A stretch of DNA of 64,000 nucleotides, taken from contig CAVSGI010000015.1 in the NCBI GenBank assembly GCA_963727445.1, positions 96,001 through 160,000 on the forward strand, read 5' to 3'. The translations under genes and the position numbers were made by a program. Source of the DNA: an uncultured delta proteobacterium. GTDB lineage: Bacteria; Myxococcota_A; Polyangia; Polyangiales; B10-G4. Below are positions 38,556-55,631 of the stretch, piece after piece (position 1 is the first letter of the stretch; each line of letters starts with the position of its first letter). Below the pieces are notes generated by a model. That model searched no databases. It worked only from the letters and a program-made list of their open reading frames with translations, and was not told the DNA's origin.

Positions 38556-39971
38556 TCAGGCGAGGAAGCCAGGAAGCGAACCCGTCAGGTCGATGGTGCT
38601 TCCGTCTTCGGCGGTCGCGCTGGTGATGCCGAGGCTGGTCCGGTCGAGGCCGAAGGCCTGCATGATCGAGACGAGGAGCTTGGTGTGCGGCGGACCGATG
38701 GTGAGGCCGCGGCCGCCCGGGGGCGACGGCAGGTTCTGGTCGTAGCGGAGGTAGCGGCCGGTGGGGATCGCGCCACCTGCGCCACCCGCCATCACGAACA
38801 TCATGTCGTGCATGTCGTGCCAGCCATTGGCGTGCTCCGGCATCCAGATGAGCAGGCTGTTGTCGAGCATGGTGCCGCCGTCTTCGGGGACCGAATCGAA
38901 GGCCTCCACCAGACGCGCGAACTGCTGCGCGTGATAGCTGTAGTAGTTGACCATCCAGGTCTGCGCCGGGTCGGACTGAGAGGGATGGGAGACGTCCTGA
39001 TGCACGTCGAGGCCCGAGGGCGCGCCGATGTCGCTGGTGCTCAGCTGCCCGGCGGCGAGCATGCCGACCCGCGTGAGGTCGCAGGCCATCGCCACGGGAA
39101 AGAGCTGGGTCAGAGCGCTGTCCGTGACCTCGGCGGTGGACAGGCCCGAGGCGGGCGAGGCCGGGCGCTCGCAGGAGAGCGCCGCCGCGGTGGAGACGCG
39201 GTTTTCGAGGTCGCGGATCATGTCGCGATGTCGCTCGAGCTTCTGTCGGTCCTCGAGGGAGAGGCGACCGACCACCTGATCGTATTCGCCGCGCACGAGC
39301 GCGAGCGTGCTCTCGCGGCGCATGCGGCTCATCTCGAGGGGCGTCGGGGTGGTGGGCGCGCCCGAAGCGGGGAGCGCCCCGAAGACGCGATCGAAGGCGT
39401 TCGGCAGGAAGCTGAAACCGCCGAGACGACCCGGGTTCACCTGAGAGCCGGCGGTGTCGTAGATGGGGGAGCTCGACCAGCAGGCGCAGCTGCCATTCGA
39501 GTAGAAGAGGTAGGGGAAGCCGCCGGAAGGCGTCGACGCTTCGGCGATGAGCTGGTCGTAGGACGGGCCGGAGACGCCGCCCTGAGCGGCGAGGCGATTG
39601 GCGATGGCGGCGCCGTGGTTGTTCGAGCTGAAGCCGTGCTCGATGTAGGCCGAGGTCATGGAGAGGCCCTCGACGATGTTGAGCTTTTCGCGGTGCGGAT
39701 GGAGCGGCCGGAGCACGTCCGAGAAGGACATGGGATCGGGATCGTCGAGAGGCATCACCCAATCGGAGCCGGTGTCGGGGTAGCCGGGCCGGCGCATCTC
39801 CCAGCGACCGGTGGGCGGTCCATGCTGGCTGAAGAAGATCATCAGACGCTTCGGCGGCACGGCGCGGGCGGTGCGAGGCCCGAAGAGGGAAGGCAGAAAG
39901 AGCGAGCCCGAGGCGAGGCCCATGGCCTGGAGGAGACGTCGACGGTGGATGCCTCTGGATCGTTTCTTCAT
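38556..39971 (-). CDS. DUF1552 domain protein (Tat signal)
   Basis: MKKRSRGIHRRRLLQAMG; PKRLMIFFSQHG; SYDQLIA; AMACDLTRV; EDGGTMLDNS; MAGGAGG..TGRYL. Confidence 0.88.
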   Translation of the reverse strand: MKKRSRGIHRRRLLQAMGLASGSLFLPSLFGPRTARAVPPKRLMIFFSQHGPPTGRWEMRRPGYPDTGSDWVMPLDDPDPMSFSDVLRPLHPHREKLNIVEGLSMTSAYIEHGFSSNNHGAAIANRLAAQGGVSGPSYDQLIAEASTPSGGFPYLFYSNGSCACWSSSPIYDTAGSQVNPGRLGGFSFLPNAFDRVFGALPASGAPTTPTPLEMSRMRRESTLALVRGEYDQVVGRLSLEDRQKLERHRDMIRDLENRVSTAAALSCERPASPASGLSTAEVTDSALTQLFPVAMACDLTRVGMLAAGQLSTSDIGAPSGLDVHQDVSHPSQSDPAQTWMVNYYSYHAQQFARLVEAFDSVPEDGGTMLDNSLLIWMPEHANGWHDMHDMMFVMAGGAGGAIPTGRYLRYDQNLPSPPGGRGLTIGPPHTKLLVSIMQAFGLDRTSLGITSATAEDGSTIDLTGSLPGFLA

Positions 39972-41650
39972 CGCCCTGCCTCGAATGCTGGCCGCTCTGT
40001 GAACGCGGGCTTCATCGCGAAGGAGACGAGGAGCTCGCGCATGTCTCCGCCCGATGCCTCGAAGTCGTCGAAGACCGACGCGACCCGGCACTGATCGGTG
40101 GCGTCGCTCGCGCGCCCCGCGGCGTACTCGAACCAGCGACCCGCGACGCAGCCCAGCGCTTCGTCGCTGTCGGCGAGGCGGTGGCTGAGATCCACCGCGT
40201 CGGCGATGTCCCAGGTCTCGCCGTCGGCGTCGAAGGTGCCGGTGGCGTCGACCGGCAGGCCGTTGTCGGTGGTGCGGAAGCGGCCGATGGCGTCGAAATT
40301 CTCGAAGGCGAAGCCGAGGCCTTCGAAGTTCGAATGGCAGCCGTGGCAGGCCGGTGGAGACGTGCGCTCCTCGAAGAGCTGGCGGTTGGTCATCGTCCCC
40401 GCGCCGCTCGACGCGGGCTCGCTGAGGTCGGCGTCCGCTGGGGGGCTGGGCGGAGCGCGGCAGAGGATGCGCTCGTAGACGAAGATGCCGCGGAGGGGCG
40501 GCGAGCCCTCGAGGCGATGGGCGCGTCCGGCGAGGAAGCCGGCGCGGGTGAGGATGCCGGCGCGCTCGGTGGCGTCGAGGGTCGCGGGCTGCCAGCCGCT
40601 CGACGGCGCGGACACACCGTAGAGATCGGCGAGCGCGGGGTTCACCTCGGTCTCGGTGCTGGTCAAGAGCGCGCGGAAGGTCCCCTCGCCCTGCCAGATC
40701 ACGCGCGAGACGAAGCGATCCGATTCCTCGCGCGCCGCCTGGACGAGCGACGAATCCCATTCGGGATAGCGGCCGCTGTCCTTCGATTCGTCGTAGAGCT
40801 GGTCGAAGTCGAGCCACTGGCGGTGGAAGTCCTCGAGCATCCGGCTCGCGCGCGGATCGTCGAGCATCCGCCGCGCCTGCGCCTCGCGCTGCTCTGGCGT
40901 CGTCAGCTCGTCGGCCCCCGCCACCGCGAGGAGCTCTTCGTCCGGCGCGCTGCCCCAGAGCAGATACGACAGCCGCGTCGCCACCTCGTAGGGTGTGAGC
41001 TCGAAGGTGGTGTCGGTCCCACCGCTGGGCCGGCCGAGCTCGAGACGGTAGAGAAACTGCGGCGCCTGGAGCATCGCCTCGACGGTGAGCTGCACCGCGG
41101 TGTCGAAGCTGCTCGCCGCGCGCTCCGCGTCGAGGAAGGTCTGGTAGCGATCGATCTCCTCGGCGGTGAGTGGACGCCGGAAGATGCGCAACCCGACCTG
41201 CGCGAGGAAGGTGGCGGCGCAAGCGTCCTCGCCATCGACGCTCGCGTCGCAGGGCATCCACGAGGCCTTGTCGGCGATCGCCGCCGCCGCGACCTCCGCC
41301 GCCACGTCGCTGTACTGCTCGATGAGGAGCGGCTGCGGGCTCAGAAGCTCCGCGCGGTTTTCGAACCCGTGCTCGTCGGGATCGGAGACCAGCTCGAAGT
41401 CGACGCTGACGGTCGGGAAGAGGTCCTCGAGGGTGGCGCGATACTCGGTCCGGCTCAGCCGCCGCACCGGCGCGGGCGCGACGTCGGTGCAGAGCTCGGG
41501 GTTGGTCACCGTCCCGGGCGGCGGCGGCGGCGTCGTGCTCCCTCCGCCGGGCGTCGTCGGCTCCTCGGGCGACGCCCCGGGGTCGAAGATCAGCCCGGTG
41601 CACCCCGTGAGGAGCAGCGAGAGAAGTCCGAGCCGAGCGAGAGCACCCAT
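39968..41650 (-). CDS. DUF1592-family (DUF1587/1595/1592/1588/1585) lipoprotein with a CxxCH motif
   Basis: Lipobox LLTGC; RRLSRTEY; FLYRLE; RLSYLLWGSAPDEEL; RAGILT; CHGCH; GFAFENFDAIGRFR. Confidence 0.9.
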   Translation of the reverse strand: MGALARLGLLSLLLTGCTGLIFDPGASPEEPTTPGGGSTTPPPPPGTVTNPELCTDVAPAPVRRLSRTEYRATLEDLFPTVSVDFELVSDPDEHGFENRAELLSPQPLLIEQYSDVAAEVAAAAIADKASWMPCDASVDGEDACAATFLAQVGLRIFRRPLTAEEIDRYQTFLDAERAASSFDTAVQLTVEAMLQAPQFLYRLELGRPSGGTDTTFELTPYEVATRLSYLLWGSAPDEELLAVAGADELTTPEQREAQARRMLDDPRASRMLEDFHRQWLDFDQLYDESKDSGRYPEWDSSLVQAAREESDRFVSRVIWQGEGTFRALLTSTETEVNPALADLYGVSAPSSGWQPATLDATERAGILTRAGFLAGRAHRLEGSPPLRGIFVYERILCRAPPSPPADADLSEPASSGAGTMTNRQLFEERTSPPACHGCHSNFEGLGFAFENFDAIGRFRTTDNGLPVDATGTFDADGETWDIADAVDLSHRLADSDEALGCVAGRWFEYAAGRASDATDQCRVASVFDDFEASGGDMRELLVSFAMKPAFTERPAFEAGR

Positions 41651-41672
41651 CCCCTCTGAGACTAGGGAACCG

Positions 41673-41693
41673 CTGTAATCCCCGCACTTACAG
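41673..41693. promoter_or_regulatory. Inverted repeat, candidate operator in a divergent promoter region
   Basis: CTGTAA-N9-TTACAG between the divergent starts at 41650 and 41753. Confidence 0.35.
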
Positions 41694-41752
41694 TTCGTTC
41701 GCGGTCGCCGAGAGGCGCCCATGACGCGGATATCCGGGCGGATCCGCGCGGC

Positions 41753-42712
41753 ATGCCTCGTGAGTTACCATCGCGTTCGGTGCGAGCTCCGGCGGCCATC
41801 GCAATCCTCTTCCTGCTCCTTTCGGGGTGTGGCGACGCGAGCGCGGTCGACGACGCAGGCGCTGACACCGCGGCCCCCTTCGACGGAGGCCCGGGGGTCG
41901 TGCCCAGCGGCCCGGACATCCTTCCCCGGGACTGCGTCCCCCGCTCGCTTCTCGTCGTCTACGACCCCTTGGGCATGTCCACGGACGACCCGAGCCATCC
42001 CCTCGCCGCCGTCCCGCTGGAGGTCGACGGTGAGCCGGTCTTCGTCTCGGCGGGCCTCCGGTTCTCCGATGCGACAGGCGCCATCGCGATCCTCAGCGTC
42101 GGCAGCGACCTCTACCGCCTCACCCCCGGCTACGAGCTGGGTTTCTTCGGCGAGGCCAAGGATCTCGCCGGCAACCTCGTGTCCCCCGACGCGCTCTTCG
42201 ATGGCGTCCTCACCGGCGGTCTCTTCGGCGCGGAGATGCGCCTGTTCACCGCGGCTCAGGGTCAGTTCGGCTCGCCGTTCACCCCCTACCGGAACGACAT
42301 CGAGGACGTCCCCCCCTTTCCCTTTCGGCCCCGGAACATCCTGTACGTCGAGATCCCTCCCTTCGCCTTCCTGGTCGCCGTGACCGGCACGGGCGAGATC
42401 CTGAGCGCCGACGCCACTTCGAGCCGGGACGTGTTCGGGATGTCCTACGTGGTGAATCGACTGCATGGGGCAACTCCAAAGACGGCCCCTCTCTCAATCC
42501 AGCAGCTGTTCCGGTTCGAAACAGAGTTCGGCGCCATCGACGAAGGGCGGGTCATCTATCAGGCCAACTTCGAGAACTCACCAATCGTGGACTTCGACCT
42601 GGTCGTGCATCTCGAGGCCGACCCGCGCGTGGGCGCGCATCCCCCGCGCGCCGTCGTCTATCAGCCCACGATCCACAGGCTCCTGGTCGTGGAGGATCTG
42701 CCTTGCGAGTAG
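41753..42712 (+). CDS. Hypothetical lipoprotein (domain shared with 48331..49503)
   Basis: Lipobox LLSGC; colinear similarity to the C-terminal part of the Kazal lipoprotein. Start may be GTG 41780. Confidence 0.75.
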   Translation: MPRELPSRSVRAPAAIAILFLLLSGCGDASAVDDAGADTAAPFDGGPGVVPSGPDILPRDCVPRSLLVVYDPLGMSTDDPSHPLAAVPLEVDGEPVFVSAGLRFSDATGAIAILSVGSDLYRLTPGYELGFFGEAKDLAGNLVSPDALFDGVLTGGLFGAEMRLFTAAQGQFGSPFTPYRNDIEDVPPFPFRPRNILYVEIPPFAFLVAVTGTGEILSADATSSRDVFGMSYVVNRLHGATPKTAPLSIQQLFRFETEFGAIDEGRVIYQANFENSPIVDFDLVVHLEADPRVGAHPPRAVVYQPTIHRLLVVEDLPCE

Positions 42713-44556
42713 CGTGTCGTGCCGCCGCCCTCCTGGCCGCGGTCGCCGGATGCGACGCGAGCTGGACGATCGACGACGGCGCCCTCGCGTCGGAGCCCAC
42801 CGACGGAAGGCTCGTCATCACGCGCTTCGCCGACGGGGCGTGCACCGACGAGGCCGTGTACTGGGCGGAGGCGAAGAGCGCCGAGCCGCCCGCGCCGCTC
42901 GATCTCGCGGCCGGCGACTACTGCTTCTACGCCTACCGGTGGGATGACACCTGTTCGGCCGCGTCCCTCGGCTGGGGCGTCGCCGAGAACGTCTCCCTTC
43001 CCTCGTCCTCGGCCATCGTGACCACCCTCGAGCCCGGGTGCGAGGGCCCGTGCTTGTCGGCCTGCACGCCACCAGCGCAGCTCTGGCCTCAGGAAGCGGA
43101 CTTTCTGCGCCGCGAGGACGTCACGTTCCGCGTGGCCATCCCACCGCGACCGGGATCGGAGCATCCGCGGCCCGATCGCTTCGTGGTCCGCGTCCAGCCG
43201 TGCGCGGGGGAGGCCTGCGGGAAGCGCGACGATCCCCTCGAAGGCGCGGGCGAGACCCCCGCCATCCGCGTGGCGGAAGACGAGACGAGCTGGACCGTTC
43301 CCCTCTCGAGCGTTCCCGGCCTCACGCCCAGCGGCCGCCTCGCATGGCAGGTGGAGGCGTGCTTCGGCGCGCGATGCATCCGCTCGCCTTCGCGCTACTT
43401 CCATGCCGGCCGCTCCCGCCGAGACGTCGATGGAGACGCCCTCGACGACGTCACGGTCGGTGACACCCTCAGCGGCAAAGCCTACTTCTACCGGACCGGC
43501 CCGGGCGGGAGCCATGCCCAGAGGCTCGACGAGGTGTGCACCGACGACGGCACCGGGATCGTCTTCGACAGCGTCGGCGACGTGAACGACGACGACAGGG
43601 GACAGCTCGCGCTCTCGCGGCGCGGCTGCAGCGAGGTCACCTTCTTCATCGCGGACCCTGGCACCGGCTACCTCGAAGCCGACCGAAGCGTCGGCGTCGA
43701 CGGCCGCGTGTCCGGGATCAGCGCCGGTGGAGACGTCGACGCCGACGGCTGGCTGGACGTCCTCGTCGCGACGACCTCTTCGGTGCAGAGGCTCGGAAGG
43801 GACGGCGACGCCATCCCCCTCGAAGGACCGCCGAGCGCGCGCGCCGGCAGGCGCCCGATCGCCGGAGGCGCGGACTTCGACGCCGATGGGTTCTCGGACT
43901 TCGCGGTCCTCGGCCCGACCGGTCCGGTCCTCTGTTTCGGCGCCGCCTCCGCGGCGACCGATGCGCTCGACTGCCACTCGCTGCCGCTGTCCGACTTCGT
44001 CGCCGACGGCGCCTCCATTCGATTCGCCACCGACGCGAACGGTGACGCCTTCGCCGACCTGGTGATCGGCGAGGCCCAGGGCACGGAGGCCGTCTGGGTG
44101 GTGTTGGGGAACGAGGCCCGGACGTACGCGCCCCTCGAGGTGGGACCCTTCGACCCTCGCGGCTCCCTCGCGACCGGCGACGTGAACGAGGACGGCCTGT
44201 CGGATCTCCTCGTCGGTCGCCCCGGGAGCAACCAGGTCGATGTCTACATCGGGGTGGCGGGCGACCAGCCCTACCCGGTGGAAGCGATCACCGTCACCGA
44301 CCAGCGAACGGTGCCGCCGGTGCCGAACGTGGTGACGGATATGGGGCGCGCCGTGGTCGCCGCCGGCGGAAGACAAGGTGCGCAGCGCTACGACTTCGGC
44401 CTCGCGCGGCTCATGGCCTATGCGGGCGGCACGATTCCAGAGGTCCGTCTCTACGAGTGGTCCGATCGTCTGGGCCCGCGCCCCAGCGTCACGATCACGG
44501 CGCCCGATCTCACGAGCACCTCCGCGATCTCCCTGGGCTTCGGAGGCGAGCTGTGA
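42703..44556 (+). CDS. FG-GAP/VCBS repeat lipoprotein
   Basis: Lipobox VAGC; repeated DVDGDALDD, GDVDADGWLDV, DFDADGFSDF, GDVNEDGLSDL. Start is uncertain. Confidence 0.83.
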   Translation: MRVACRAAALLAAVAGCDASWTIDDGALASEPTDGRLVITRFADGACTDEAVYWAEAKSAEPPAPLDLAAGDYCFYAYRWDDTCSAASLGWGVAENVSLPSSSAIVTTLEPGCEGPCLSACTPPAQLWPQEADFLRREDVTFRVAIPPRPGSEHPRPDRFVVRVQPCAGEACGKRDDPLEGAGETPAIRVAEDETSWTVPLSSVPGLTPSGRLAWQVEACFGARCIRSPSRYFHAGRSRRDVDGDALDDVTVGDTLSGKAYFYRTGPGGSHAQRLDEVCTDDGTGIVFDSVGDVNDDDRGQLALSRRGCSEVTFFIADPGTGYLEADRSVGVDGRVSGISAGGDVDADGWLDVLVATTSSVQRLGRDGDAIPLEGPPSARAGRRPIAGGADFDADGFSDFAVLGPTGPVLCFGAASAATDALDCHSLPLSDFVADGASIRFATDANGDAFADLVIGEAQGTEAVWVVLGNEARTYAPLEVGPFDPRGSLATGDVNEDGLSDLLVGRPGSNQVDVYIGVAGDQPYPVEAITVTDQRTVPPVPNVVTDMGRAVVAAGGRQGAQRYDFGLARLMAYAGGTIPEVRLYEWSDRLGPRPSVTITAPDLTSTSAISLGFGGEL

Positions 44557-45305
44557 AGTCCCTCCTCCTCGCCATGCTCTGTTGGCTCGCCCTGACGAGC
44601 GCCGCGGCCGCGACCGCCCCCGACCTCGAGCGCGCGCGAGAGCTCTATGAAGCGGCGTCCTTCGAGGAGGTCCTCGAGGTGCTCGCCCGAGTCGAGGCCG
44701 GCTCGGAGCTGTCGCGCAGAGAGGTGAGCGAGATGCTCTTCCTCCGCGCGCTCACGCGCCGCGCGATGGGCTCGGAGGACGCTGCCGAACGCGACCTCGA
44801 ACGCATCGCCTACCTCGACCCCGACTATCAGCTTCCGGCGGAGGCACCGCCTTCGATGCGCGCGATCTTCCAGTCGACCCGCGCGGCGGTCGAGCCGCTG
44901 CGCCTCCTCGACGAGCTCACCCGCACCGCCGACGGCGTTCGCTTCGCGGTCCGCGCTTCGGGGGATCCTCGCGGCACGGTGCGCAGCATCGACGCCGCGT
45001 GCCGCACCGGCGATGGCGGGTGGCAGCGGGGCGACGGGGGCGTCGTGACGATCCGCGCCCAGGAGGGAGCCACCGTCGAGTGCGCGTCGAAGCTCGTGGG
45101 GCCGGGCGGCGCGGTGCTGCGCGAGCGCGGAACGCGCGAGGCGCCGCTCGGGTTCACCGTGGGCCCACAGATCACGGCCGACGAGGGCCCGAGCGCGTGG
45201 CCCTTCGTCATCGCCGGCGCTGGCGTGCTGGTGGCGGCGGCGATCGCCACCGTCATCATCTTCGCGGTGGCGCCGCCCAACACGACCGTGACCCCGAACC
45301 TCTGA
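44553..45305 (+). CDS. Exported TPR-like protein with C-terminal TM anchor
   Basis: GTGA coupling; signal peptide; LERARELYEAASFEEV helical domain; WPFVIAGAGVLVAAAIATVIIF. Confidence 0.75.
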   Translation: MKSLLLAMLCWLALTSAAAATAPDLERARELYEAASFEEVLEVLARVEAGSELSRREVSEMLFLRALTRRAMGSEDAAERDLERIAYLDPDYQLPAEAPPSMRAIFQSTRAAVEPLRLLDELTRTADGVRFAVRASGDPRGTVRSIDAACRTGDGGWQRGDGGVVTIRAQEGATVECASKLVGPGGAVLRERGTREAPLGFTVGPQITADEGPSAWPFVIAGAGVLVAAAIATVIIFAVAPPNTTVTPNL

Positions 45306-45310
45306 GTCGA

Positions 45311-46675
45311 TCAGCCCGAGAGCAGCCCGGCGAGCGGCCCATCCGGCCCCTCGTCCAGGCTGCCGAAGCGGTCGATGTCGGACAGGCCCATGTAGCGACA
45401 CATCGCCACCAGGAGGCGATTGTGATCGGTGTCGGAGAAGGAGAGGAAGCGACCGGTGCGGACGCCGCCCGCGCCGCCACCCGCCACGACGAATGGCACG
45501 TTGCCGAAGTCGTGATCGTAGCCGCGGCCGAGCTCGCTGCCCCACACGACCATGGTGTTGTCGAGGAGGGTGCCGTCGCCCTCGGGCACCGAGGCGAGCC
45601 GATCGAGGAAGCGGGCGAAGTGCTCCGCGTAGAAGGAGTAGATTCTCGTGAGCTCCTCCTCGGCCTGCGCCGTGCGCTCGTGGGTGATCAGGTGATGCAC
45701 CTCGCGACTGACGCCGATGAAGTCGTAGAGCATTCCGTCGTTCTCTCCCACCGCGTACTGCATGCTCGCGACCCGGGTCAGATCACAGGTGAGCGCCGCG
45801 GTGATGAGCTCGAATTGCCGGTCGAAGATCTCGGGCACGTTCGCCCGGTCGAGGAGGTCGAGGGGATCGCCGATGTCGGGGATGGCGCATTCGAGCGTCG
45901 TCGACAGGCCACGCTCGATGTCGCGGACGGACTCGAGGTGCGCGTCGATCTTGTCCCGATCCGCGCGGGCGACGCGCGCGCGCATTCGCCCGAGGTCGGC
46001 CGTGAGCGAGTCGAGCACGCTGCGTCGTTCCGCCATCCGACGCTCGTTCTCGGCGCCGGGAGCGCCGGCTCCGAAGACGCGTGAGAAGAGCGCGTGGGGG
46101 CTTGGCTCTGGCGAGACCGGCTGCTCGGCGCCGCGATAGATCATGCGGTGCCCCGGGTGATTGCCGCCGCTCGCGAGCCCGGCCTCGATCGAGCGATAGG
46201 GCAGCTCTGCTCCGATGCGATCGGCGATCACCTGATCCACCGACGGACCGCTGTTCCAGCCGTAGTAGTAGACGCCCATCCCGTCGTCGCGGGAGAAGGT
46301 GCGGTCCTCGCGCAGGGGCGAGCCGGTCCAGAGCAGGGGCGGGCCCTTGGTGTGAGGGGCGCCCACGCTCTCGGACGCGCGCATCCGGAGCCCGTCGAGC
46401 ACCACGATCTGATCGCGGTGGCGCTCGAGCGGGGAGAGGATCTCGCCGAGGGTGAAGTCCGTCTCGCCGCCGGAAGGCAGCCAGCGGTCGTGGACGGTCC
46501 CGTGGGGCGTGAAGAAGAGGACCAGGCGCTTGGGCGCGACCTCGCCGTCTCCGCTCGCGTTCAGCAGTGGGACGAAGGGGCTCAGCAGGGCGGCCGCGCC
46601 CGCGGCGCCTGCCCCCTCGAGGAAAGCGCGCCGCGACAAGCGCCGTCGACCGGGGCGTCGTGCTCGGTTGCTCAT
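45311..46675 (-). CDS. DUF1552 domain protein (Tat signal)
   Basis: LSRRAFLEGAG; PKRLVLFFTPHG; SVDQVIA; ALTCDLTRV; EGDGTLLDNT; VAGGGAGG..TGRFL. Confidence 0.9.
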   Translation of the reverse strand: MSNRARRPGRRRLSRRAFLEGAGAAGAAALLSPFVPLLNASGDGEVAPKRLVLFFTPHGTVHDRWLPSGGETDFTLGEILSPLERHRDQIVVLDGLRMRASESVGAPHTKGPPLLWTGSPLREDRTFSRDDGMGVYYYGWNSGPSVDQVIADRIGAELPYRSIEAGLASGGNHPGHRMIYRGAEQPVSPEPSPHALFSRVFGAGAPGAENERRMAERRSVLDSLTADLGRMRARVARADRDKIDAHLESVRDIERGLSTTLECAIPDIGDPLDLLDRANVPEIFDRQFELITAALTCDLTRVASMQYAVGENDGMLYDFIGVSREVHHLITHERTAQAEEELTRIYSFYAEHFARFLDRLASVPEGDGTLLDNTMVVWGSELGRGYDHDFGNVPFVVAGGGAGGVRTGRFLSFSDTDHNRLLVAMCRYMGLSDIDRFGSLDEGPDGPLAGLLSG

Positions 46676-46684
46676 GCTCTGCTC

Positions 46685-48334
46685 CTATTCGGTGGGGACG
46701 ATGCGATGTCGAAAGCCGTCGCTGACGGCGATGGCGAAGAGGAGCGCGCGCAGATCGTCGGGCTCCTCCATGGCGGCGTCGAGAGACGCGAGGGTGCAGG
46801 CGTCGGCGTCCGTCTCCCGCCGCCCGAAGGCGAAGCGGAACCACTGGCGCGCGACGCACGCTTCGACCTCCGGGCTCTCGACCAGGCGCTCGGTGAGCTC
46901 GGCCGCGCCGGTGAAGGGTCCGTCGACGTCGGTGCGGGTGAGACGCCCGCTCGCGTCGACGGGCACACCGTTGTCCATCGTGCGGAAGGCGCCGATGGCG
47001 TCGTAGCTCTCGAGGCCGAAGCCGATCTCGTCGATGAGCTCGTGGCAGGAAGCGCAAGGGGGAGCCGTGTGCTCGGCGAAGCGCTCCCGTGTGGTGGCGC
47101 CCGGCTGCGGCTCGGGCAGGGTGATGTCGACGTCGGGGGGCGGATCAGGCAGGTCCTGACAGAAGAAGCTCTCGCGAACGAGCTTGCCCCGGAGCGTGAG
47201 CGACGACTGCGAGACGTGGGCGTGCGCGGTCAAGACGCTCGGATGGGTGAGGATGCCGTGACGCTCGCCGGGCAGGAGCGCCACGCGATCGCCCTCCGCG
47301 TATCCAGGAGGCTCGGCGATGCCGTAGAGGTCGAAGAGCGGCCCGGTCGGATAGGAGAAGTCCGCGGTCAAGAGCGTCCGGAGGCTCCCGTCGCCGCGCC
47401 GGATCACCGCGTCAGCGAAGGTGAGCGTCTCCTCGCGCATGGCGTCGACCAGCGCGGGATCGAAGCTCGGATAGAGCACCGGGTTCTTCACGGCCGTGCC
47501 GAGACGCTCCAGTCCGAGCCACTGCTCGTGAAAGTCGGCGATGCCGCGCGCCGCGCGCGGATCGTCGAGCATCCGCGAGACCTCCGCGCGCACCCCGTCG
47601 GCGTCCTCGAGGAGGCCCGCCTCGGCAGCGTCGAGGAGCTCCGCGTCGGGCGCCGCGCGGAAGAGGAAGAACGAGAGCCGCGAGGCGAGCGCGTGAGGCT
47701 CGAGGGGGACCATCGCGCCGGCGGTGCCCTCTTCGGGGACGAGCGCGTCGGGGTGGTAGAGGAAGGCCGGCGAGGCGAGCATCGCGGTGAGCGCCAACCG
47801 CCGGCCCTGCGCGTAATCGTCGGTGCCGTACGACACGAAGAGCGCGATGAGCCCCGCGCGCTCGGCGTCGGTGAGAGGACGCCGGTAGACGCGGCGGCCG
47901 ACCGCGGAGACGAATCGTTCGGCGCATTCGGCGACGCTCGTCGTGAGACGGTTGCAGTCGTCGAGGGGGCCGTAGTCCACCGAAGCCGCCGCCGCCTCCG
48001 CCGCCTCCAGGTACTGCTGCACCTCCAGGCGACCCACGGGCGTCAAGGCGTTGCTGGTGAACACCCCGGCTCGCTCGTCGACGGGCAGCGAGATCTCGCT
48101 GTCCAGGCGCACACCGAAGAGGTCGAGGAGCGTGTTTTCGTACTCGGTGCGGGTCAGCCGCCGGAGCGGCGTGGGGCCGGTGGTGAGCATCGCGGCCGGA
48201 TCGCAGAGGACGGCCGGACCGGGAGGATCGGGGGGACCCAGAGGTCCGTGACCGTCGCCGATGACGCCCTGGCAACCCAGGGCGAGCGCCGCAGTGAGCG
48301 CCACCGGCAGAGCGGATCTCGGGATGGGCCTCAC
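46685..48334 (-). CDS. DUF1592-family lipoprotein with a CxxCH motif
   Basis: GTG overlaps the upstream stop; lipobox LALGC; RRLTRTEYENT; RLSFFLF; RHGILT; CASCH; GFGLESYDAIGAFR. Confidence 0.9.
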   Translation of the reverse strand: MRPIPRSALPVALTAALALGCQGVIGDGHGPLGPPDPPGPAVLCDPAAMLTTGPTPLRRLTRTEYENTLLDLFGVRLDSEISLPVDERAGVFTSNALTPVGRLEVQQYLEAAEAAAASVDYGPLDDCNRLTTSVAECAERFVSAVGRRVYRRPLTDAERAGLIALFVSYGTDDYAQGRRLALTAMLASPAFLYHPDALVPEEGTAGAMVPLEPHALASRLSFFLFRAAPDAELLDAAEAGLLEDADGVRAEVSRMLDDPRAARGIADFHEQWLGLERLGTAVKNPVLYPSFDPALVDAMREETLTFADAVIRRGDGSLRTLLTADFSYPTGPLFDLYGIAEPPGYAEGDRVALLPGERHGILTHPSVLTAHAHVSQSSLTLRGKLVRESFFCQDLPDPPPDVDITLPEPQPGATTRERFAEHTAPPCASCHELIDEIGFGLESYDAIGAFRTMDNGVPVDASGRLTRTDVDGPFTGAAELTERLVESPEVEACVARQWFRFAFGRRETDADACTLASLDAAMEEPDDLRALLFAIAVSDGFRHRIVPTE

Positions 48335-49503
48335 GGCGCCTCCGCCTCGAGGTAGACGAGCTCGTCCGTCCCGTCGCCGTCGATGTCGGCCGCGAGGATC
48401 GAATCGGGCACCACCTCGGCGCCGCTCTCGTCGCGCAGGGTGAAGGTCTCCGTGAGGCAGCCGGAGGTCGCCGAGAGCTCGTAGACGGTGGAGCCGTCGA
48501 CCACGAGGACCGCGTCGCCCGGGCCGGAGAGCCGCGCGCCGACCAGGAAATCGCCGGCGACCGGCACCCCGTCGGTGCACCGAACCACCCCCGGCAACAG
48601 CTCGATGAAGCGCAGCATGTCGTCGAGGACGAGGAGCCGACCCGTGGCGTCGATGGCGGTGAGCGCGCCGGCGCCCGAACCGTAGAGGTCCACCAGGTCC
48701 AGCGTCACCGGCTCGAAGGGACGCGTCGTGCCGCTCGCCGCCACGTACTCGACGATCGGCAACGGCCCGGAGAACGTGCCGGCCGACGCGGACAAGAGCC
48801 AGAGGCCTTCGCTGTCCTTGGCGGCGACCACCGGCGTGCTGGCGACGCGGCCGGTGATCAGGAGCTCGGGCGAGAGGAAGCTGTCGTCTTCCTTCTTGAG
48901 ATCGACGGGCGTGGTGAAGGCGTGGGTGGCGGGATCGAGCTGCCAGGCCTCGTGGCCGTCGACGAAGATCAGCTCTTCACCGCCGGTCCCGTCGAGGTCC
49001 ACTGCGCCGCCGAGGTCGAGGGTCAAAGGGACGCCCTCGTCACTGCGGGTCTCGAAGCTCAGCGGTCCGGAGCCGAGGCGGATGGTGACGCGCGAGGTGG
49101 GCCCAGCGCATCGGCAGACGGTGCAGCCGTCTTCATCCACGGCGAGGCCCGCGGGGCAGGGGAGGTCGCACTCGGGAGCGAGTGGGCACGTGGCTTCGCA
49201 CTCGCCCTCGTGGTCGATCTCGACCATCGCACACTCGGCCTCGCACGCGTTGCCGTAGGTCTCGCCGTCGACGCCGCAGACCGGCGCGTAGACGTCGGAG
49301 CAGACACACAGAGCGCGGCAGACGCCCTCCTCCCGGTCGCAGTACTCGCCGTCGTCGCAGTCGGCGTCGTTGGTACACACACCACCGGCGTCACCACCGG
49401 CGTCACCACCGGCGTCACCACCAGAGGGCGGCGAGCCCGAGGCCATGCAGGCGGAGAGAGCGAGGACGGGGAGCAGGGCGCTCGGGAGGAAGATTCGATT
49501 CAT
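48331..49503 (-). CDS. Lipoprotein with Kazal-type and antistasin-like Cys domains plus an unnamed repeat domain
   Basis: Lipobox LSAC; CSDVYAPVCGVDGETYGNACEAEC (Kazal); CDLPCPAGLAVDEDGCTVCRC; GGDA x3 linker (12-bp repeat at about 49381-49420). Confidence 0.83.
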   Translation of the reverse strand: MNRIFLPSALLPVLALSACMASGSPPSGGDAGGDAGGDAGGVCTNDADCDDGEYCDREEGVCRALCVCSDVYAPVCGVDGETYGNACEAECAMVEIDHEGECEATCPLAPECDLPCPAGLAVDEDGCTVCRCAGPTSRVTIRLGSGPLSFETRSDEGVPLTLDLGGAVDLDGTGGEELIFVDGHEAWQLDPATHAFTTPVDLKKEDDSFLSPELLITGRVASTPVVAAKDSEGLWLLSASAGTFSGPLPIVEYVAASGTTRPFEPVTLDLVDLYGSGAGALTAIDATGRLLVLDDMLRFIELLPGVVRCTDGVPVAGDFLVGARLSGPGDAVLVVDGSTVYELSATSGCLTETFTLRDESGAEVVPDSILAADIDGDGTDELVYLEAEAP

Positions 49504-49558: not shown

Positions 49559-49574
49559 TGCGAGAAGCGTACCG
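49559..49574 (-). promoter_or_regulatory. Possible sigma54 promoter of the Kazal-DUF1592-DUF1552 operon
   Basis: Minus strand CGGTACG-CTTC-TCGCA (GG-N10-GC), about 55 nt upstream of ATG 49503. Confidence 0.4.
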
Positions 49575-49651
49575 TCGGAGATCACTGCGCTTTCACGCAG
49601 CTCGGTCTCGGACCTGTTCCCTCGCCGTCGACACCTGCTGTGCCAGCTTCT

Positions 49652-51577
49652 TCAGTCGAGGGGAACCGTGATGCGCTGTCGACCGCCGGGCTCCACCACG
49701 ACCCGGACGCGGCGGCCGGGTGGTGTCCCGTTGGGGCGCACCTCGAGGAGATGCTCGCCGGCTGGGAGGGTGAAGCGGCCCGGCGTCTCGCCGAGGCGGC
49801 GGCCGTTCAGGAAGACCAGCGCCCAGCCGCCGGTGGTGACGACGTTCACCGTGCCCTCGCCCGAGGGTTGGCTCTGCGCCACCGCCGTCGCGCTTTCCAT
49901 CGCGCCCGCTGCGGTCATGGTCATGCGCGGGCGGCGGCGGCGGCGTGCCGAGGGCGTCCGCGTCTCGTCGCTCGTCGAGGACGGCGACTCGTCGGCCACA
50001 GGTGGATCGCCGGCGTGCGACCCCGGCGTCTCGGGCGAGCCCGCCTCTTCGGTGCTGGGCGGCTCGTCCCCCTCGTCCACTTCGGACCCGTTCGCCTCTT
50101 CGGCGGTCGCCGCTTCCCCGGCCGCCGTCTCGTGGGCCTGCGCGGGCGCGGGCGGGTTCACGAACGCGCCTCGGAACGCGACGAAGGAGCCAGCGATCAC
50201 CGCGAGCCCCACCGCCGCAGCACCCACGACGAGAGCGCGACGGGGGCGAGGGGTGGGCGCGGGAGCGGGCGCGGCGCGCGGACGCGTCGGCATCTGCGAT
50301 TGGCGCAAACCCTCCGTGGGTATCGTGGAAGCCCGCGCATCATCCGGCGCGGGCTCGGCGGCCTTGGCGCCACGGCTCGGCCGCGGGGAACCGCCCGCAC
50401 CGACGGTGGGCGACAGGGGGCTGACCGCCGTCTCGAGCTGGCTGCGCCGACGCTTGCGCCGCGGTGGGTGCACGCCGGACTGTCCCGGGTCGTCCTCGAT
50501 GTCGCCCATCCGCGCCTCGGAGACCTGCGGCACGGGGACGGCGGCCTGGTTCGCGAGCTCGAGGAGCTGCTGCTTCTGACTGAGCGCCGCCGGGAACAGA
50601 TCCTCGAGCCACTCGGCGATGTCCGGCAGCCCGATGGTCACGCCTTCGGCGTTCAGGAAGCGGAGGATTTCCCTCCCGAGCTCGCGCGCGCTCCGGTGGC
50701 GCTTCTTCGGGTCGCGATCGAGTGCGCGCATCACGATCGCGTCGAGCGCCGGCGGCACGCGCGGGTCCGCATCGCTCGGCTTGGGGATCGGTTCCATGGT
50801 CACGGCCAGAACGGTCTTGGTCGCGGTCTTGCGATGGAAGAGGCGCTTGCCCGTGGCGACCTCCCAGAGCACCACGCCCATCGACCAGACATCGGTGGTG
50901 CGATCGACGGTCTCGCCGTGGGCCTGCTCGGGGGACATGTACGCCCACTTGCCCTTCACCGAGCCGGTGGTGGTGTCGTGGATCTGATCGGCGGCGCGCG
51001 CGATCCCGAAGTCCACCACCTTCACTCCACCGTCGAAGGTGACGAAGAGGTTGTGTGGCGAGATGTCGCGATGCACGACGTGGAGCGGATCGCCGCGCGT
51101 GCCGCGCAGCTCGTGGGCGGCGTGGAGGCCTTCGCAAGCGTCGGCCACGATGCGGCAGCCGATGAGCATTCGCTCGCGCCCCCCGCGGCCCTCGACTCGC
51201 GAGCAGCCAGCGAGGATGCGCGATAGCGGCTCGCCCACCAGATAGTCCATCGCGATGTAGTAGGTGCCGTCCTGTTCGCCGAAGTCGAAGACCGAGCAGA
51301 CGTTGGGGTGGCTGATGCGTGAGGCGATGCGGGCCTCGTCCAGGAACATCTCGACGAAGGTGCGCTCCTCGGCGAGGTGGGGGTGGATCCGCTTGAGCGC
51401 GACCAGCTTCTCGAAGCCCTCCGGCCCCTCGGCGCGCGCCAGGAAGACCTTCCCCATTCCCCCGGCGGCGAGCTCGAAGCAGAGACGGTAGCGGCCGTAC
51501 TTCTGGTCGGACTCGGCGGGGACCGAAGCAGACGCCTCGGGGGAGATGGTGTCGTCGGGGAGGGGAAGAGTGCTCAT
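49652..51577 (-). CDS. Transmembrane Ser/Thr protein kinase with C-terminal PEGA-like domain
   Basis: AAGGMG, VALK, HRDISPHN, DFG, KGKWAYMSPEQ; TM; VFLNGRRLGETP..LPAGEHLLEV. Confidence 0.95.
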   Translation of the reverse strand: MSTLPLPDDTISPEASASVPAESDQKYGRYRLCFELAAGGMGKVFLARAEGPEGFEKLVALKRIHPHLAEERTFVEMFLDEARIASRISHPNVCSVFDFGEQDGTYYIAMDYLVGEPLSRILAGCSRVEGRGGRERMLIGCRIVADACEGLHAAHELRGTRGDPLHVVHRDISPHNLFVTFDGGVKVVDFGIARAADQIHDTTTGSVKGKWAYMSPEQAHGETVDRTTDVWSMGVVLWEVATGKRLFHRKTATKTVLAVTMEPIPKPSDADPRVPPALDAIVMRALDRDPKKRHRSARELGREILRFLNAEGVTIGLPDIAEWLEDLFPAALSQKQQLLELANQAAVPVPQVSEARMGDIEDDPGQSGVHPPRRKRRRSQLETAVSPLSPTVGAGGSPRPSRGAKAAEPAPDDARASTIPTEGLRQSQMPTRPRAAPAPAPTPRPRRALVVGAAAVGLAVIAGSFVAFRGAFVNPPAPAQAHETAAGEAATAEEANGSEVDEGDEPPSTEEAGSPETPGSHAGDPPVADESPSSTSDETRTPSARRRRRPRMTMTAAGAMESATAVAQSQPSGEGTVNVVTTGGWALVFLNGRRLGETPGRFTLPAGEHLLEVRPNGTPPGRRVRVVVEPGGRQRITVPLD

Positions 51578-51623: not shown

Positions 51624-52946
51624 GTGAGCGGCGACGAATGGGCGGTCGACGCGACCGTGAAGACCGACGATGCGCTCCTGGTGCGGCGCTTCTCGCTTCG
51701 CGTCCTCGAGGGTCCGGACGCCGGCGAGGTCTGGCGCTCGAATGCCGACGCCTGCTCGATCGGCACCAACGCGGCCAACGATCTCGTGTTGAGCGACCTG
51801 ACGGTCTCGCGCTTTCACGCGGAGGTCCGGATCGAGGAGCGAGGCGCGCGGCTCCGCGACCTCGGGAGCAGCAACGGGACGCGCCTCGACGGAACGAAGG
51901 TGCTCGACGCGCTCCCGCGCAACGGGAGCCTCATCCGCATCGGGCGCACGACCCTGGCATTCGACGTAGGCCAGAGCCGCAACCGGCTGCCCATCAGCGA
52001 GCACCGGCGCTTCGGCACGCTGGTCGGCGAGTCGGCGGCGCTACGCGCGGTCTTCTCGACCCTCGAGAAGGTCGCCCCCACCGACGTGACGGTGTTGATC
52101 GAGGGGGAGACGGGCACCGGCAAAGAAGAAGTGGCCACCAGCATCCACCAGGGCAGCGCGCGCGCCGACCAGGAGATGGTGGTGGTGGACTGTGGGGCGA
52201 TCCCGGCGAACCTGATCGAGAGCTACCTCTTCGGCCACGAAGCCGGCGCCTTCACCGGAGCCACGTCGGCACGCGCCGGCGCCTTCGAGGAGGCAGACGG
52301 CGGCACCCTGCTCCTGGACGAGATCGGAGAGCTGCCCCTCGAGATGCAACCCAAGCTGCTGCGCGTCCTCGAAGCCCGTGAGGTGCGGCGGATCGGAAGC
52401 ACCCACGAGCGCCCGGTGGACGTGCGCGTCGTCGCCGCCACGAACCGCGACCTCCGTCGAGAAGTGAGCGAAGGACGGTTTCGCGAGGATCTCTACTACC
52501 GTCTCGCCGTGGTGCGGGTGACGATCCCTCCGCTCCGCGAGCGGCCCGAGGACATCCCCGTCCTGGTCGACGATCTTCTCGGACGGCTGCGCCTCGATGA
52601 CGAGGCGCGCGAGCGGCTCTCCTCTGCCGAGCATCTCGCCGCTCTCCGAGCTGGGGCGTGGCCCGGCAACGTCCGCGAGCTCCGCAATCACCTCGAGCGG
52701 GCGGCGCTCTTCGACGACGTGGTCATCACCGCTCCTTCCGGCGCCAGCTCCCTCGACAATCTCGTCGATCCGACGCTGCCCTACGCCGAAGCGCGGCGGC
52801 GCGTCCTCGAGCTCTTCGAGGCGAGCTACGGGCGCGCGCTCGTCGAGCGTCACGGAGGCAACGTCAGCAAGGCGGCGCGCGAGGCCGGGATGGGGCGGAC
52901 CTACCTTCACCGGATCCTCAAGCGCCACGGCTACCGGCGGGAGTGA
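51624..52946 (+). CDS. FHA-domain sigma54-dependent enhancer-binding protein (Fis-type HTH)
   Basis: VSRFHA / DLGSSNGT (FHA); [41 protein letters not shown]. Confidence 0.95.
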
Positions 52947-53056
52947 GCGCGCTCGGCTCCCGTGAGGAGCGCGAACGTGTCCCCTCCGCGTGTACACCCA
53001 CCGGGCACGCCCGGTCTCTCGGCGCGCTGCCCATCGTGAACACGAGCGATTTCGGA

Positions 53057-53072
53057 AGGCACGAGCCTTGCC
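53057..53072 (+). promoter_or_regulatory. Sigma54 -24/-12 promoter
   Basis: AGGCACG-AGCC-TTGCC, about 25 nt upstream of ATG 53097, with GGAGG before the ATG. Confidence 0.7.
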
Positions 53073-53096
53073 TTGGCCGGGGGGCGGAGGTTCTCG

Positions 53097-55631
53097 ATGT
53101 CGCTTCGCCCGCTGCTCTGGCTCTCTGTGCCCCTGACCCTCGCACTCGCGTGCGCGCCGCCGAGCGCCGTCGACGGCGCCGATGGGGGCGCCGCGCCCGA
53201 CGGCAGCGTTGGCGACGATGGGGGTGGTGGCGGCGACGCCGCGCGGCGACCTCCTACGGGCGACCCCATCGCGCGCTTCTTTGCGTCACACCTGAGCCAC
53301 GCCGACTCGGGAGGTGCCGCGTCGGAAGTGGTCGCGATCCTCCGCGACACCGCGGGCGTCGAACGGGACGAGGTCGTCCCGGTCTCTCTGCCTTTCGCGC
53401 GCGGCCAGGTGAGCGACCTCTCCACCCTGGCGCTGGTCGATGCTGCGAACGGAGAGAGCTTCGACACGAGCTGGCAGCCGATCCGCCATTGGCGTGACGG
53501 CACTGTCCACACCGCGATCGCGCACGCGCGGATCTCCCTCGGTCGCAGCGAGACGCGCCGCCTGGCGCTCGCGACCGACGCCACGTCCACCGACGCCGCC
53601 TTCCAGCCGCACCCCTGCGTCGGCGATCCCGCGAACGCGCTGCTGGAGGTGGAGGTCCGCGATCGACCGGGGGCGACCTACGCGTTCGACGCCAGCGCCC
53701 CCGACGCCCACGACCGGGTGGAGGTCGTCAGGGAGGACCCCTTCGGGCAGACGGTCCGGATCGACGGTTGGCTGCGCACCAGCGATTCCCTCGGTGTCAC
53801 CTACGATGACGGGACGCCCCGCGACTTCCTGCACGTCATCGCCTACGTGCGGACGCCCTCCGCCCTCGCCCCGCCCGTCGTCACCGTCGAGCTCGCGCTC
53901 GCGAACGACTACCTGGGCTGGGGCAATCCCACCGAGGGCTACGGCGACGATGAGCTCGGACCGCCGCCGAGCGACGACCCCACCTTCTTCCCCCTCGGCC
54001 CGGTGCTCGTCGCCGACGCGCGCGTGCACCTCCGCGGCGGCTCGAGCACCGTCGCCTTTCTCGAGGACGCGAACGGCCTCGAGCGGATCGAAGGCGAGGG
54101 CGAGACGACCTTCGTCCTCGGCCGAGACTTTCTCCTCGCCGACCACCAGCGTCTGGGCACCCGCTACCGGGTGGGCTACGCGTGCGAGACCGAGGGGACG
54201 CCCAGCGAAACCGCGCTCGCCGCCTCGGTCGAGCACGCGCTCCTCGGCATCGCCACCCCCACCGCCCACGCCGATGCCGGAGCGCTGGGTCTCGTCGGCA
54301 CCCTCGACGTAGGCGCGATCCCCAACGACGCCGCGGCGCGCGCGAGCGACGAGCTGGACGGATGGCCGAGCCTCGACGCCGATCCGTTCTCGTCCTTCGG
54401 CGAGTCGAAGACGCCGAACGGCGGTGGCGGCTCTCCGCTCATGGGTGCGATCAGCGAGCCCTACCTGCGCATGATCCTCACGGGCGACCCGCGCTATGCC
54501 GACAAGCTCCGCCAAGCCGCCCTCAACCGACTCAAGTGGCCCGAGTGGCTCCACGGGCTCGGAGCCCACCGCGCCGACGTCGACCTCTTCTGGCAGCAGG
54601 GGATCCACTTCGCCTCTCGCAACCAGCTCGGCCGCCCCCGCGAGAGCCAGTGGCGCACGGCGGTGCTCCATCCGGAGCTCGCGCCCGCGGACCTGCCCGA
54701 GGGTTATCCGCACGACTACCCCGGCAACGACAGCCAGCACTGGACGATCAATGCCCTCGTCGATCACTTCGCGGTCACGGGCGAACGCTGGGCCTGGGAC
54801 GCCGTCCGTGACGAGGCCATCCTTCTGACGCGCGCGCTCCCCAACGAAGGCTATGCATCCGCACCGAGCGGCCAGAACCGCAACGAGCGCGAGACGGGGT
54901 GGACCTTCTATGCGATGGCCCAGGCCATCGCCATCGGAGTCGATGTCGACGCGGACCGACCGCTGACCACCTGGCTCGAGGACCGTACGCGCCTCCTCGT
55001 GGAGGCGAGCGACAATCCCTTGGAAGCCGGCGCGACGCCACCGGTCTTCACCGCTCACACGCCGGACGCGCGATCTGGCTACGATCTCGTCGGCGCTCGC
55101 GACTACCGCATGTCCATCACCTGGATGGTCGGGATTGCGATCCTCGGCGGCGTCGCCGCCTACGAGCATGCCGGGATCGACGAGGCGCTGGAGGGCCTGG
55201 TGGCGCCGGCGCTGCGCTCCCTCGCCGATGGCTATGAGCGCGACTTCACAGATCCGGTCACCGGGGCGCACTTCACACACGGTCTGCGCTACATGACGAT
55301 GACGCACCTCGACGAAGGCTCGGGCCTGGTTCGCATCCATCCGCGCCAGGCCGACGCGCTGCGTTCGGAGGGTGCGGGCCTGTCGCTGGGGAGCACCCGC
55401 CGCTTCTCCTTCACCGGCGTGACCGCCGCCGTCGCCTTGTTGCCCGAGGGTAGCTACGAGCGCTCCATCGCGCAGTGCGTCGGCTCGGCGCTCTACGACT
55501 CGGGAACCGGCACCCGTGAGCGCTCCGCGTGGGAGCGCTACGATCTGCTGGGTGCCGGCTTCGACTACGACACTTCGGGCTGCGCCGCGATGATCGCCGC
55601 CCGCGACGCCGCGTATTCGTCTGCACCCTGA
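53097..55631 (+). CDS. Large lipoprotein, possibly PcRGLX/YetA-like (lyase-type fold)
   Basis: Lipobox LALAC; N-terminal VPVSLPFARG...WRDGTV resembles the YetA/exo-rhamnogalacturonan-lyase N-terminal barrel; helical C-terminal half with NERETGW. Confidence 0.55.
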   Translation: MSLRPLLWLSVPLTLALACAPPSAVDGADGGAAPDGSVGDDGGGGGDAARRPPTGDPIARFFASHLSHADSGGAASEVVAILRDTAGVERDEVVPVSLPFARGQVSDLSTLALVDAANGESFDTSWQPIRHWRDGTVHTAIAHARISLGRSETRRLALATDATSTDAAFQPHPCVGDPANALLEVEVRDRPGATYAFDASAPDAHDRVEVVREDPFGQTVRIDGWLRTSDSLGVTYDDGTPRDFLHVIAYVRTPSALAPPVVTVELALANDYLGWGNPTEGYGDDELGPPPSDDPTFFPLGPVLVADARVHLRGGSSTVAFLEDANGLERIEGEGETTFVLGRDFLLADHQRLGTRYRVGYACETEGTPSETALAASVEHALLGIATPTAHADAGALGLVGTLDVGAIPNDAAARASDELDGWPSLDADPFSSFGESKTPNGGGGSPLMGAISEPYLRMILTGDPRYADKLRQAALNRLKWPEWLHGLGAHRADVDLFWQQGIHFASRNQLGRPRESQWRTAVLHPELAPADLPEGYPHDYPGNDSQHWTINALVDHFAVTGERWAWDAVRDEAILLTRALPNEGYASAPSGQNRNERETGWTFYAMAQAIAIGVDVDADRPLTTWLEDRTRLLVEASDNPLEAGATPPVFTAHTPDARSGYDLVGARDYRMSITWMVGIAILGGVAAYEHAGIDEALEGLVAPALRSLADGYERDFTDPVTGAHFTHGLRYMTMTHLDEGSGLVRIHPRQADALRSEGAGLSLGSTRRFSFTGVTAAVALLPEGSYERSIAQCVGSALYDSGTGTRERSAWERYDLLGAGFDYDTSGCAAMIAARDAAYSSAP

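Follow-up and report, generated by a model that had tools for sequence, protein, structure and literature searches.

Related systems and overview of the locus

The FHA-domain sigma54 enhancer-binding proteins of Myxococcus xanthus, reportedly described by Jelsbak, Givskov and Kaiser in 2005, are said to combine FHA, AAA+ and helix-turn-helix (HTH) domains, to have a kinase gene nearby and to act on sigma54-dependent genes. The same arrangement occurs in the stretch of DNA examined here (the window), 64,000 nucleotides (nt) of a draft Polyangiales genome (G000; contig 15, positions 96001-160000), in which a Ser/Thr kinase gene and an FHA activator gene diverge across 46 nt. The window differs from the M. 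xanthus systems in having identifiable target promoters, an inverted-repeat box, a dedicated TPR partner and an FHA domain without the Gly-Arg pair. We regard the locus as a real and partly conserved circuit, a variant of that theme with four additions (a candidate enhancer, two promoters, a predicted contact between a TPR protein and the PEGA tail of the kinase, and an FHA domain lacking an arginine); no description of these was found in the literature searched, mostly without subscription papers. It is rather likely that the circuit spans the envelope, with the kinase acting on the activator and the activator on the sigma54 promoters at either side of the pair.

GarA/OdhI of the Actinobacteria are controlled by an intramolecular FHA switch. 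They share with the window activator a threonine in an N-terminal arm ahead of the FHA domain; however, GarA keeps Gly-Arg and regulates enzymes, whereas the FHA domain of the window is fused to a transcription activator.

The genes directly to the left of the pair include one of the two DUF1592-DUF1552 cassettes of the window. In the accessible parts of the paper by He et al. (2017, PMC5615132), pairs of PSCyt3/PSD proteins (DUF1587-1595-1592-1588-1585) and DUF1552 proteins show the same domains and the same pairing; their function is given as unknown and their context suggests carbohydrate metabolism. In contrast to those pairs, the window carries the lipoprotein form in a member of the Myxococcota, and one copy appears to be under a kinase/sigma54 switch together with a lyase-like gene. 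The papers searched assign no function to the pair.

A co-inherited kinase and activator

The kinase has the VALK, HRD, DFG189 and MSPE motifs and the transmembrane (TM) helix of a Hanks-type transmembrane Ser/Thr kinase. The activator matches PF00158 (1e-70), shows Walker A, Walker B, GAFTGA and arginine finger motifs at 161, 199, 229 and 285 and ends in an HTH_8 domain (Pfam), as a sigma54 enhancer-binding protein does; the genome contains rpoN, and DNA binding is predicted from the HTH. An earlier note on this DNA had named these and the surrounding genes, the 46-nt divergence, the intact GAFTGA, and a good right and a weaker left sigma54 motif, all of which hold up in Pfam searches, translations, matrix scoring and comparison with shuffled leaders.

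Searches of 41 and 401 genomes, from which 40 loci were fetched, returned five further head-to-head pairs (L004, L005, L064, L065 and L066) in three other families, which brings the pair to six genomes and four families. The kinases of the six pairs form one clade among 154 rows (Shimodaira-Hasegawa-like approximate likelihood ratio test, SH-aLRT, 92) and the activators one clade among 66 rows (SH-aLRT 89). At the level of sequence, these comparisons show that kinase and activator are co-inherited.

L004 and L064 are 5-kb contigs, and three relatives (L005, L065 and L066) are informative on neighbours. A gene for the approximately 260-aa domain that we call lipoX, which in the window is the C-terminal part of the Kazal/antistasin lipoprotein, lies beside the orthologous pair with a sigma54 motif and a box in 3/3 of them (L005, L066 and L084+L065). 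The fullest counterpart is genome G264, which has the kinase, the activator (61% identity), both lipoproteins and the TPR gene (52%) described below, a separate Kazal gene (motif 17.8), and lipoX-DUF1592A-DUF1552A, its DUF1592A (51%) being the best match to that of the window among the 401 genomes. The G264 module is split over two contigs joined by an exact 141-nt terminal overlap. Its gene order is unlike that of the window, and the parts have therefore stayed together through rearrangement. The whole module with DUF1592A-DUF1552A is present in these two genomes; G022 and G462 retain lipoX without the cassette. The best explanation is that the cargo genes are swappable between genomes.

Two sigma54 promoters with a shared palindrome

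Promoters were scored with a sigma54 matrix trained on 99 leader sites of the genome from a seed consensus; gene calls came from a heuristic using GC content at the third codon position (GC3), on which the leader counts depend, and the box test described below was repeated without them. The matrix is enriched near activators (14/97 leaders, compared to 183/4154). The right motif, upstream of the 844-aa lipoprotein gene, scores 17.2 (16.2 when left out of training), and none of the shuffled leaders reaches 17. The left motif, upstream of the Kazal lipoprotein gene, scores 7.7, which 3.3% of shuffled leaders attain, and is weak taken alone; the orthologous sites of three relatives are strong (15.4, 11.7 and 15.7). 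The Kazal lipoprotein, DUF1592-A and DUF1552-A genes are tightly coupled (a 4-nt overlap, then a 9-nt gap) and likely form one operon under the left promoter.

All of the six promoters inspected carry a palindrome, TGT-N13-ACA, 49-93 nt upstream of the GG of the motif, with the consensus TGT(T/G)CAC-N5-GTG(C/G)ACA. A matrix built from the five boxes of relatives only, excluding those of the window, places the two window boxes 1st (14.7) and 2nd (13.5) of 495 leaders with a sigma54 score of at least 7, and the left box is the sole leader of 4255 to score at least 14. Genome-wide and independently of gene calls, a box of at least 12 is found at 9/2612 sigma54-like sites, with about 1.8 expected. 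Box and promoter are conserved before the lipoX gene in four genomes. Boxes that were not used for training occur in six near-related loci with a similar recognition helix (L067, L070, L071, L081, L082 and L083), and also in L104 and L084, including before a second lipoX gene; the scan of untrained loci gave a box of at least 9 at 23/741 sites, and the control, 156 loci without this activator type, gave a box at 0/742. In a test devised after the distances were known, the spacing between box and promoter keeps the boxes on a single face of the helix (7 untrained boxes; R 0.91, simulated p 0.0006). Among the 24 activator C-termini listed for the genome, the R-T-Y-L-H-R helix is unique to the window activator. 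From these sequence comparisons, the boxes are likely candidate enhancer sites read by the neighbouring activator.

Enhancers usually lie 80-150 bp upstream, and the Nla28 site consists of 8-bp tandem repeats, according to the accessible part of PMC7910581; several TGT-N13-ACA boxes are closer to their promoter, and the window box differs from the Nla28 site in being an inverted repeat.

In L067, L070, L071, L082 and L083, a strong sigma54 motif precedes the gene of a 725-aa lipoprotein, with the box about 91 nt upstream of the motif (70 nt in L070), and this gene adjoins those of a kinase of about 1550 aa and an FHA activator. In the window genome, C6:498287 (-) and C20:639762 (-) have sigma54 scores of 19.7 and 17.4 with in-phase boxes of 15.5 and 12.7; the genes that follow, one for a large membrane protein and one a very short open reading frame, may be remote targets.

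Two other explanations bear on these promoters. The reader of the box might be a different regulator, or a group of activator paralogues acting jointly, the neighbouring activator being neither its sole nor its main reader. Seven other sites of the genome score as well or nearly as well on the box, two of them at the strong, distant promoters just mentioned, and hetero-oligomeric activators of M. xanthus have reportedly been described (Volz 2012, by its title). Yet across families the box accompanies activators with this HTH, the 156 control loci do not have it, and the helical phasing fits an activator that acts by looping; we hold a different reader to be very improbable.

The second is chance assembly in a lipoprotein-rich island, where the lyase-like lipoprotein gene would be the one working target, the left promoter would be decaying and the DUF cassette a passenger. 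The low score of the left motif is in its favour, as are the size of the repertoire (the genome has 269 kinases, 24 complete DUF1592-DUF1552 pairs and 69 sigma54 activators, of which 25 contain an FHA domain), the P value of 0.07 for proximity and the frequency of sigma54 motifs at lipoprotein leaders (61/509 compared to 136/3742 for other leaders), which DUF cassettes do not significantly exceed (5/24, p=0.16). Against this, the left box tops 4255 leaders, G264 has the same operon with a strong promoter and a box beside the orthologous pair, and the three operon genes are tightly coupled. Chance assembly is improbable, if a little less so than a different reader of the box.

The FHA domain and the activation step

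The solved structures closest to the activator FHA domain are GarA/OdhI (PDB 6i2q, 2kfu and 2kb3; E 2e-11), and its top Pfam match is the FHA-like Yop-YscD_cpl. The Ser-x-x-His and Asn-Gly-Thr of phosphothreonine-binding FHA domains are present as S62-R-F-H65, with Arg63 retained, and N84-G-T86. In the beta3-beta4 loop, Gly47-Thr48 stands where GarA has Gly-Arg, and all close homologues have Ser, Thr or Ala in place of the arginine. This arginine forms part of the FHA phosphothreonine site, according to the accessible part of PMC6509490. Because it is replaced, the established property on which the earlier note had relied, that FHA domains bind phosphothreonine, is unproven for this activator. 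Gly-Arg is replaced in 17/24 scored FHA activators of the genome and in 3/37 other FHA domains (six domains unparsed).

The N-terminal arm of the activator contains a threonine (T11), in a (D/E)AT motif, which is conserved in the six orthologues. We favour phosphorylation of this threonine as the switch of the activator, phosphate-free docking being a real rival. In the latter case, the activator would still drive both promoters, its FHA domain would either dock, with no phosphate involved, on the kinase or some other partner protein, or sense something else, and the kinase-TPR pair would signal to other substrates. The loss of the arginine in so many activators, the Yop-YscD_cpl match and the fact that kinase-TPR modules usually lack an activator all agree with such a scheme, but Ser62, Arg63, His65 and Asn-Gly-Thr are kept, the nearest structures are GarA/OdhI, the arm threonine is conserved and all four families retain the pair in its head-to-head form. 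We consider an activator uncoupled from phosphothreonine unlikely, and retain the proposal that the kinase phosphorylates the arm.

The probable input side: a TPR protein and two lipoproteins

Three plus-strand genes between the cassettes (41753-45305) had been overlooked in the earlier note, and one of them encodes the likely partner of the kinase. The five other copies of this exported TPR protein in the genome all have a kinase gene as neighbour, and in four cases the PEGA tail of that kinase can be read; a TPR gene is present in 43/60 PEGA-kinase loci. The TPR family thus appears, from gene neighbourhoods, to be the partner of this kinase family. A model of the complex between the TPR protein and the PEGA tail scores 0.83, compared to 0.00 for the best control, with agreement of the runs in 100% of contacts and a partner predicted local distance difference test (pLDDT) of at least 90, and its predicted interface comprises residues 12-17 and 47-53 of the modelled TPR piece and 9-16 and 28-32 of the PEGA piece; the mark used is attained by 116/157 solved complexes and 2/215 mismatched pairs, counts that are only approximate, own alignments having been used.

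The two other genes encode lipoproteins and are in line with the TPR gene; they are a candidate sensory input. The same three-gene order (two lipoproteins, TPR) stands directly behind the activator gene in G264 and in no other fetched locus. In L005, L064 and L066, the TPR gene has as its neighbour a lipoprotein gene of a different family (about 730 aa), and this position may be that of a swappable sensor.

The proposed exported output

The large lipoprotein encoded at the right (844 aa) has a predicted fold like that of PL26 lyases. Its AlphaFold2 (AF2) model (pLDDT 75.7) is multi-domain, as in PL26, with beta-sandwich domains and an alpha/alpha barrel. Foldseek matches it to PL26/PcRGLX (E 2e-6), and the structure alignment (VIA) with PcRGLX, the exo-rhamnogalacturonan lyase (PDB 5xq3, 5xqg) that is its best full-length fold match, gives Z 14.1 over 555 aligned residues, with a root-mean-square deviation (rmsd) of 4.7 and 8% identity, the next unrelated entry being at 10.0. 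Atlas clusters with PcRGLX were matched at 0.86-0.90. Unlike PcRGLX, the lipoprotein does not match the Pfam families PF19501, PF21345 and PF21346, the first of which occurs in 2/22 homologues; a role as lyase is a candidate one. The protein has 23 distant relatives, but none of 201 genomes in the class has a homologue over its full length, and there is no sequence match in the PDB, where lipoX has none either. We describe the protein as glycan-lyase-like, with a predicted PL26-like fold.

Both cassettes are DUF1592-DUF1552 pairs, with PSD2-5 and PSCyt3 domains and a CxxCH beside a DUF1552 gene. The CxxCH of DUF1592-A is invariant in 31 sequences, and the genome has cytochrome c assembly genes. 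DUF1552-A has a twin-arginine translocation (Tat) signal (TIGR01409, over the cut-off), twin arginines are present in DUF1552-B, and the family alignment shows conserved His columns. The "surface sensing" and the "heme/metal enzyme complex" of the earlier note are putative; one CxxCH, a Tat signal and a conserved His cluster are present. The single-sequence fold of DUF1552-A is unusable (pLDDT 35.7), the alignment profiles of DUF1552 and DUF1592 have no significant match in the PDB, DUF1552 has no usable match in the Atlas outside PF07586, and DUF1592-A used as a query for related loci returned none. Co-regulation of the pair with the lyase-like gene, proposed from one genome, would fit a carbohydrate role.

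The activator control of flanking genes proposed in the earlier note is likely for both sigma54 promoters, that of the Kazal lipoprotein-DUF1592A-DUF1552A operon included (box, strong orthologous promoters, G264), and is not supported for cassette B. The leader of cassette B scores -2.0 on the sigma54 matrix, with no sigma54 motif and no box, and its orthologue (L030 in G022, 65-73%) has no kinase or activator within 12 kb; cassette B is probably outside the circuit. A local duplication of the cassettes was rejected, B being distant from A (it ranks 12th-18th among the paralogues of A).

The suggested check of gene neighbourhoods in relatives likewise gave a divided answer: the kinase/activator pair is conserved in six genomes, and linkage of DUF1592-DUF1552 to activators is not. 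There is no general coupling, because DUF1552 occurs in 3/40 activator-centred loci (22 of the loci are at least 15 kb) and in 0/156 kinase-centred loci, and a general linkage was rejected on these counts. In the window genome, 3/29 DUF1552 hits have a kinase/FHA-activator pair at most 10 kb away; with 0.96 expected, this is not significant genome-wide (P=0.07). By hand count among the matches listed, DUF1592 is at most 10 kb from an FHA activator in 3/29 cases in G022, 1/6 in G035, 0/11 in G037, 0/4 in G040 and 0/9 in G001.

General sigma54 control of the cassettes was also rejected: by the first gene-calling pass, 0/41 leaders of relatives score at least 10. Within that set, L033 and L047, where activator and DUF1592 genes diverge, had been mis-called; they score 13.8 and 18.0, neither with a box. 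Sigma54 matrix scores are somewhat higher for cassettes that have an FHA activator close by (Mann-Whitney p=0.05). The cassettes behave as cargo recruited by several regulators (L033, L047, L069 and L074).

Similar assemblies are found elsewhere in the genome. At C20:675759-682617, a kinase, an FHA activator, a sigma54-like motif (8.8), a lipoprotein, a DUF1592-like gene and a putatively DUF1501-like Tat protein are on one strand. Two further cassettes (C10:702307-712488 and C10:821727-830780; sigma54 scores of 12.7 and 14.4) are less than 7 kb from kinase/FHA-activator pairs, and the DUF1552 gene at C10:1154667-1156989 is split over several frames.

Features of the locus and neighbouring genes

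Table 1. Features of the kinase/activator locus, in window positions.
Feature	Position	Strand	Basis and remarks
Cassette B: DUF1552-B (38556-39971) and DUF1592-B (39968-41650)	38556..41650	-	Pfam; real pair
Lipoproteins of about 310 aa and of 617 aa (FG-GAP), collinear with TPR gene	41753..44556	+	Pfam FG-GAP
Exported TPR/beta-sandwich protein	44553..45305	+	C-terminal TM; predicted partner of kinase PEGA tail
DUF1552-A (HXXSHH)	45311..46675	-	Tat signal; His108, His327/328/332 and His388 conserved; Pfam, TIGR01409
DUF1592-A lipoprotein	46685..48334	-	PSD3-PSD5-PSD4-PSCyt3-PSD2; one CxxCH (427-431); Pfam
Kazal/antistasin Cys-rich lipoprotein fused to lipoX (about 260 aa)	48331..49503	-	Pfam; family alignment
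Left sigma54 -24/-12 motif	49560..49574	-	GG 49573, GC 49561; score 7.7
Left palindrome TGT-N13-ACA, enhancer-like	49615..49633	.	Begins 60 nt upstream of left GG; score 14.7
Ser/Thr kinase, Hanks-type	49652..51577	-	One TM helix (448-466); extracytoplasmic C-terminal PEGA tail; Pfam Pkinase 1.9e-33, PEGA 0.005
FHA-AAA+-HTH sigma54 enhancer-binding protein	51624..52946	+	Pfam and motifs; G47-T48 in FHA; N-terminal arm with T11
Right palindrome TGT-N13-ACA, enhancer-like	52978..52996	.	Begins 80 nt upstream of right GG; score 13.5
Right sigma54 -24/-12 motif	53057..53071	+	GG 53058, GC 53070; downstream ATG 53097; score 17.2
844-aa lipoprotein, predicted PL26/PcRGLX-like architecture	53097..55631	+	AF2 model, Foldseek, structure alignment

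The region is flanked by a gene for a membrane protein with Gln-rich repeats (37823-38545, +) and by a stand-alone astB succinylarginine dihydrolase gene (55918-57243, +). Further to the right, a lipoprotein resembling Cu/Zn superoxide dismutase (57313-57897, -) has a strong sigma54 motif (18.8) without a TGT-N13-ACA box, and another Ser/Thr kinase gene (57900-59721, +) has its N-lobe (Pfam, 57900 frame) and its C-lobe (58438-59721) in different frames, owing either to an error of assembly or to a frameshift. Cassette B and the lipoprotein-TPR genes diverge, and the gap between them contains an inverted repeat, TGTAA-N9-TTACA (41674-41692). Its score with the box matrix is -4.3 and no sigma54 motif accompanies it; it may be the site of another regulator.

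The proposed circuit and what weighs against it

In the circuit that we favour, the two lipoproteins encoded ahead of the TPR protein would probably catch a signal, and the TPR protein, itself exported, is predicted to hold the kinase by its outer PEGA tail. The kinase would then dimerize and autophosphorylate, and would phosphorylate T11 in the arm of the activator, which would switch the activator's own arginine-less FHA domain in the manner of GarA/OdhI. The activator may then oligomerize and loop the DNA; from the two TGT-N13-ACA boxes, to which it likely binds, it would open both flanking sigma54 promoters. The exported products would be the Kazal/lipoX lipoprotein, the one-heme DUF1592 lipoprotein with the Tat-exported His-cluster DUF1552 protein, and the glycan-lyase-like lipoprotein. 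The job of the circuit is most likely the processing of an extracellular or envelope glycan.

A number of observations weigh against this circuit. The contact between kinase and activator is a candidate argued from their co-inheritance, the two trees come from quick searches, most members of the kinase family lack a neighbouring activator (one is present in 7/156 kinase-centred loci), and the FHA domain has Gly47-Thr48 at the arginine site. The left motif is weak, both window boxes deviate from the consensus of the relatives, and the seven other sites of the genome score as well or almost as well; the box was first spotted with the window promoters in view, and its phasing test is post hoc. 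Some activators with the same helix have no box in their loci (L033 and L077), and the box is found before only 1/7 further lipoX genes. As to the output, DUF1592A-DUF1552A is linked in 1/3 informative relatives, an FHA activator occurs in 0/20 fetched loci of close DUF1592-A homologues apart from the G264 join, and the lyase-like gene, with its 8% identity to PL26, is absent from the relatives' modules searched.

Implications

Myxobacteria have dozens of FHA sigma54 activators and hundreds of Ser/Thr kinases, few of which have been connected with a kinase, a site on the DNA and target genes. That activators have lost the FHA arginine so systematically casts doubt on the common view that these domains read phosphothreonine.

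A bolder reading is that the Polyangiales have an undescribed four-layer envelope pathway (lipoprotein, TPR clamp, kinase and arginine-less FHA with a non-canonical switch) with its own enhancer, and that the DUF1592-DUF1552 pair is a heme-fed extracellular glycan-processing enzyme, hence its co-induction with a PL26-like lyase. We find it doubtful; if true, it would provide the first inducing signal and substrate class for this widespread orphan pair. The locus also offers a way to induce a DUF1592-DUF1552 pair, with a link to the circuit that is conserved in only one relative. Its testable parts are exactly defined: the 19-nt boxes and the promoters, two of each, the threonine in the activator arm, and the contact predicted between TPR and PEGA. 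From the box, targets can also be predicted at related loci in a genus with large genomes.

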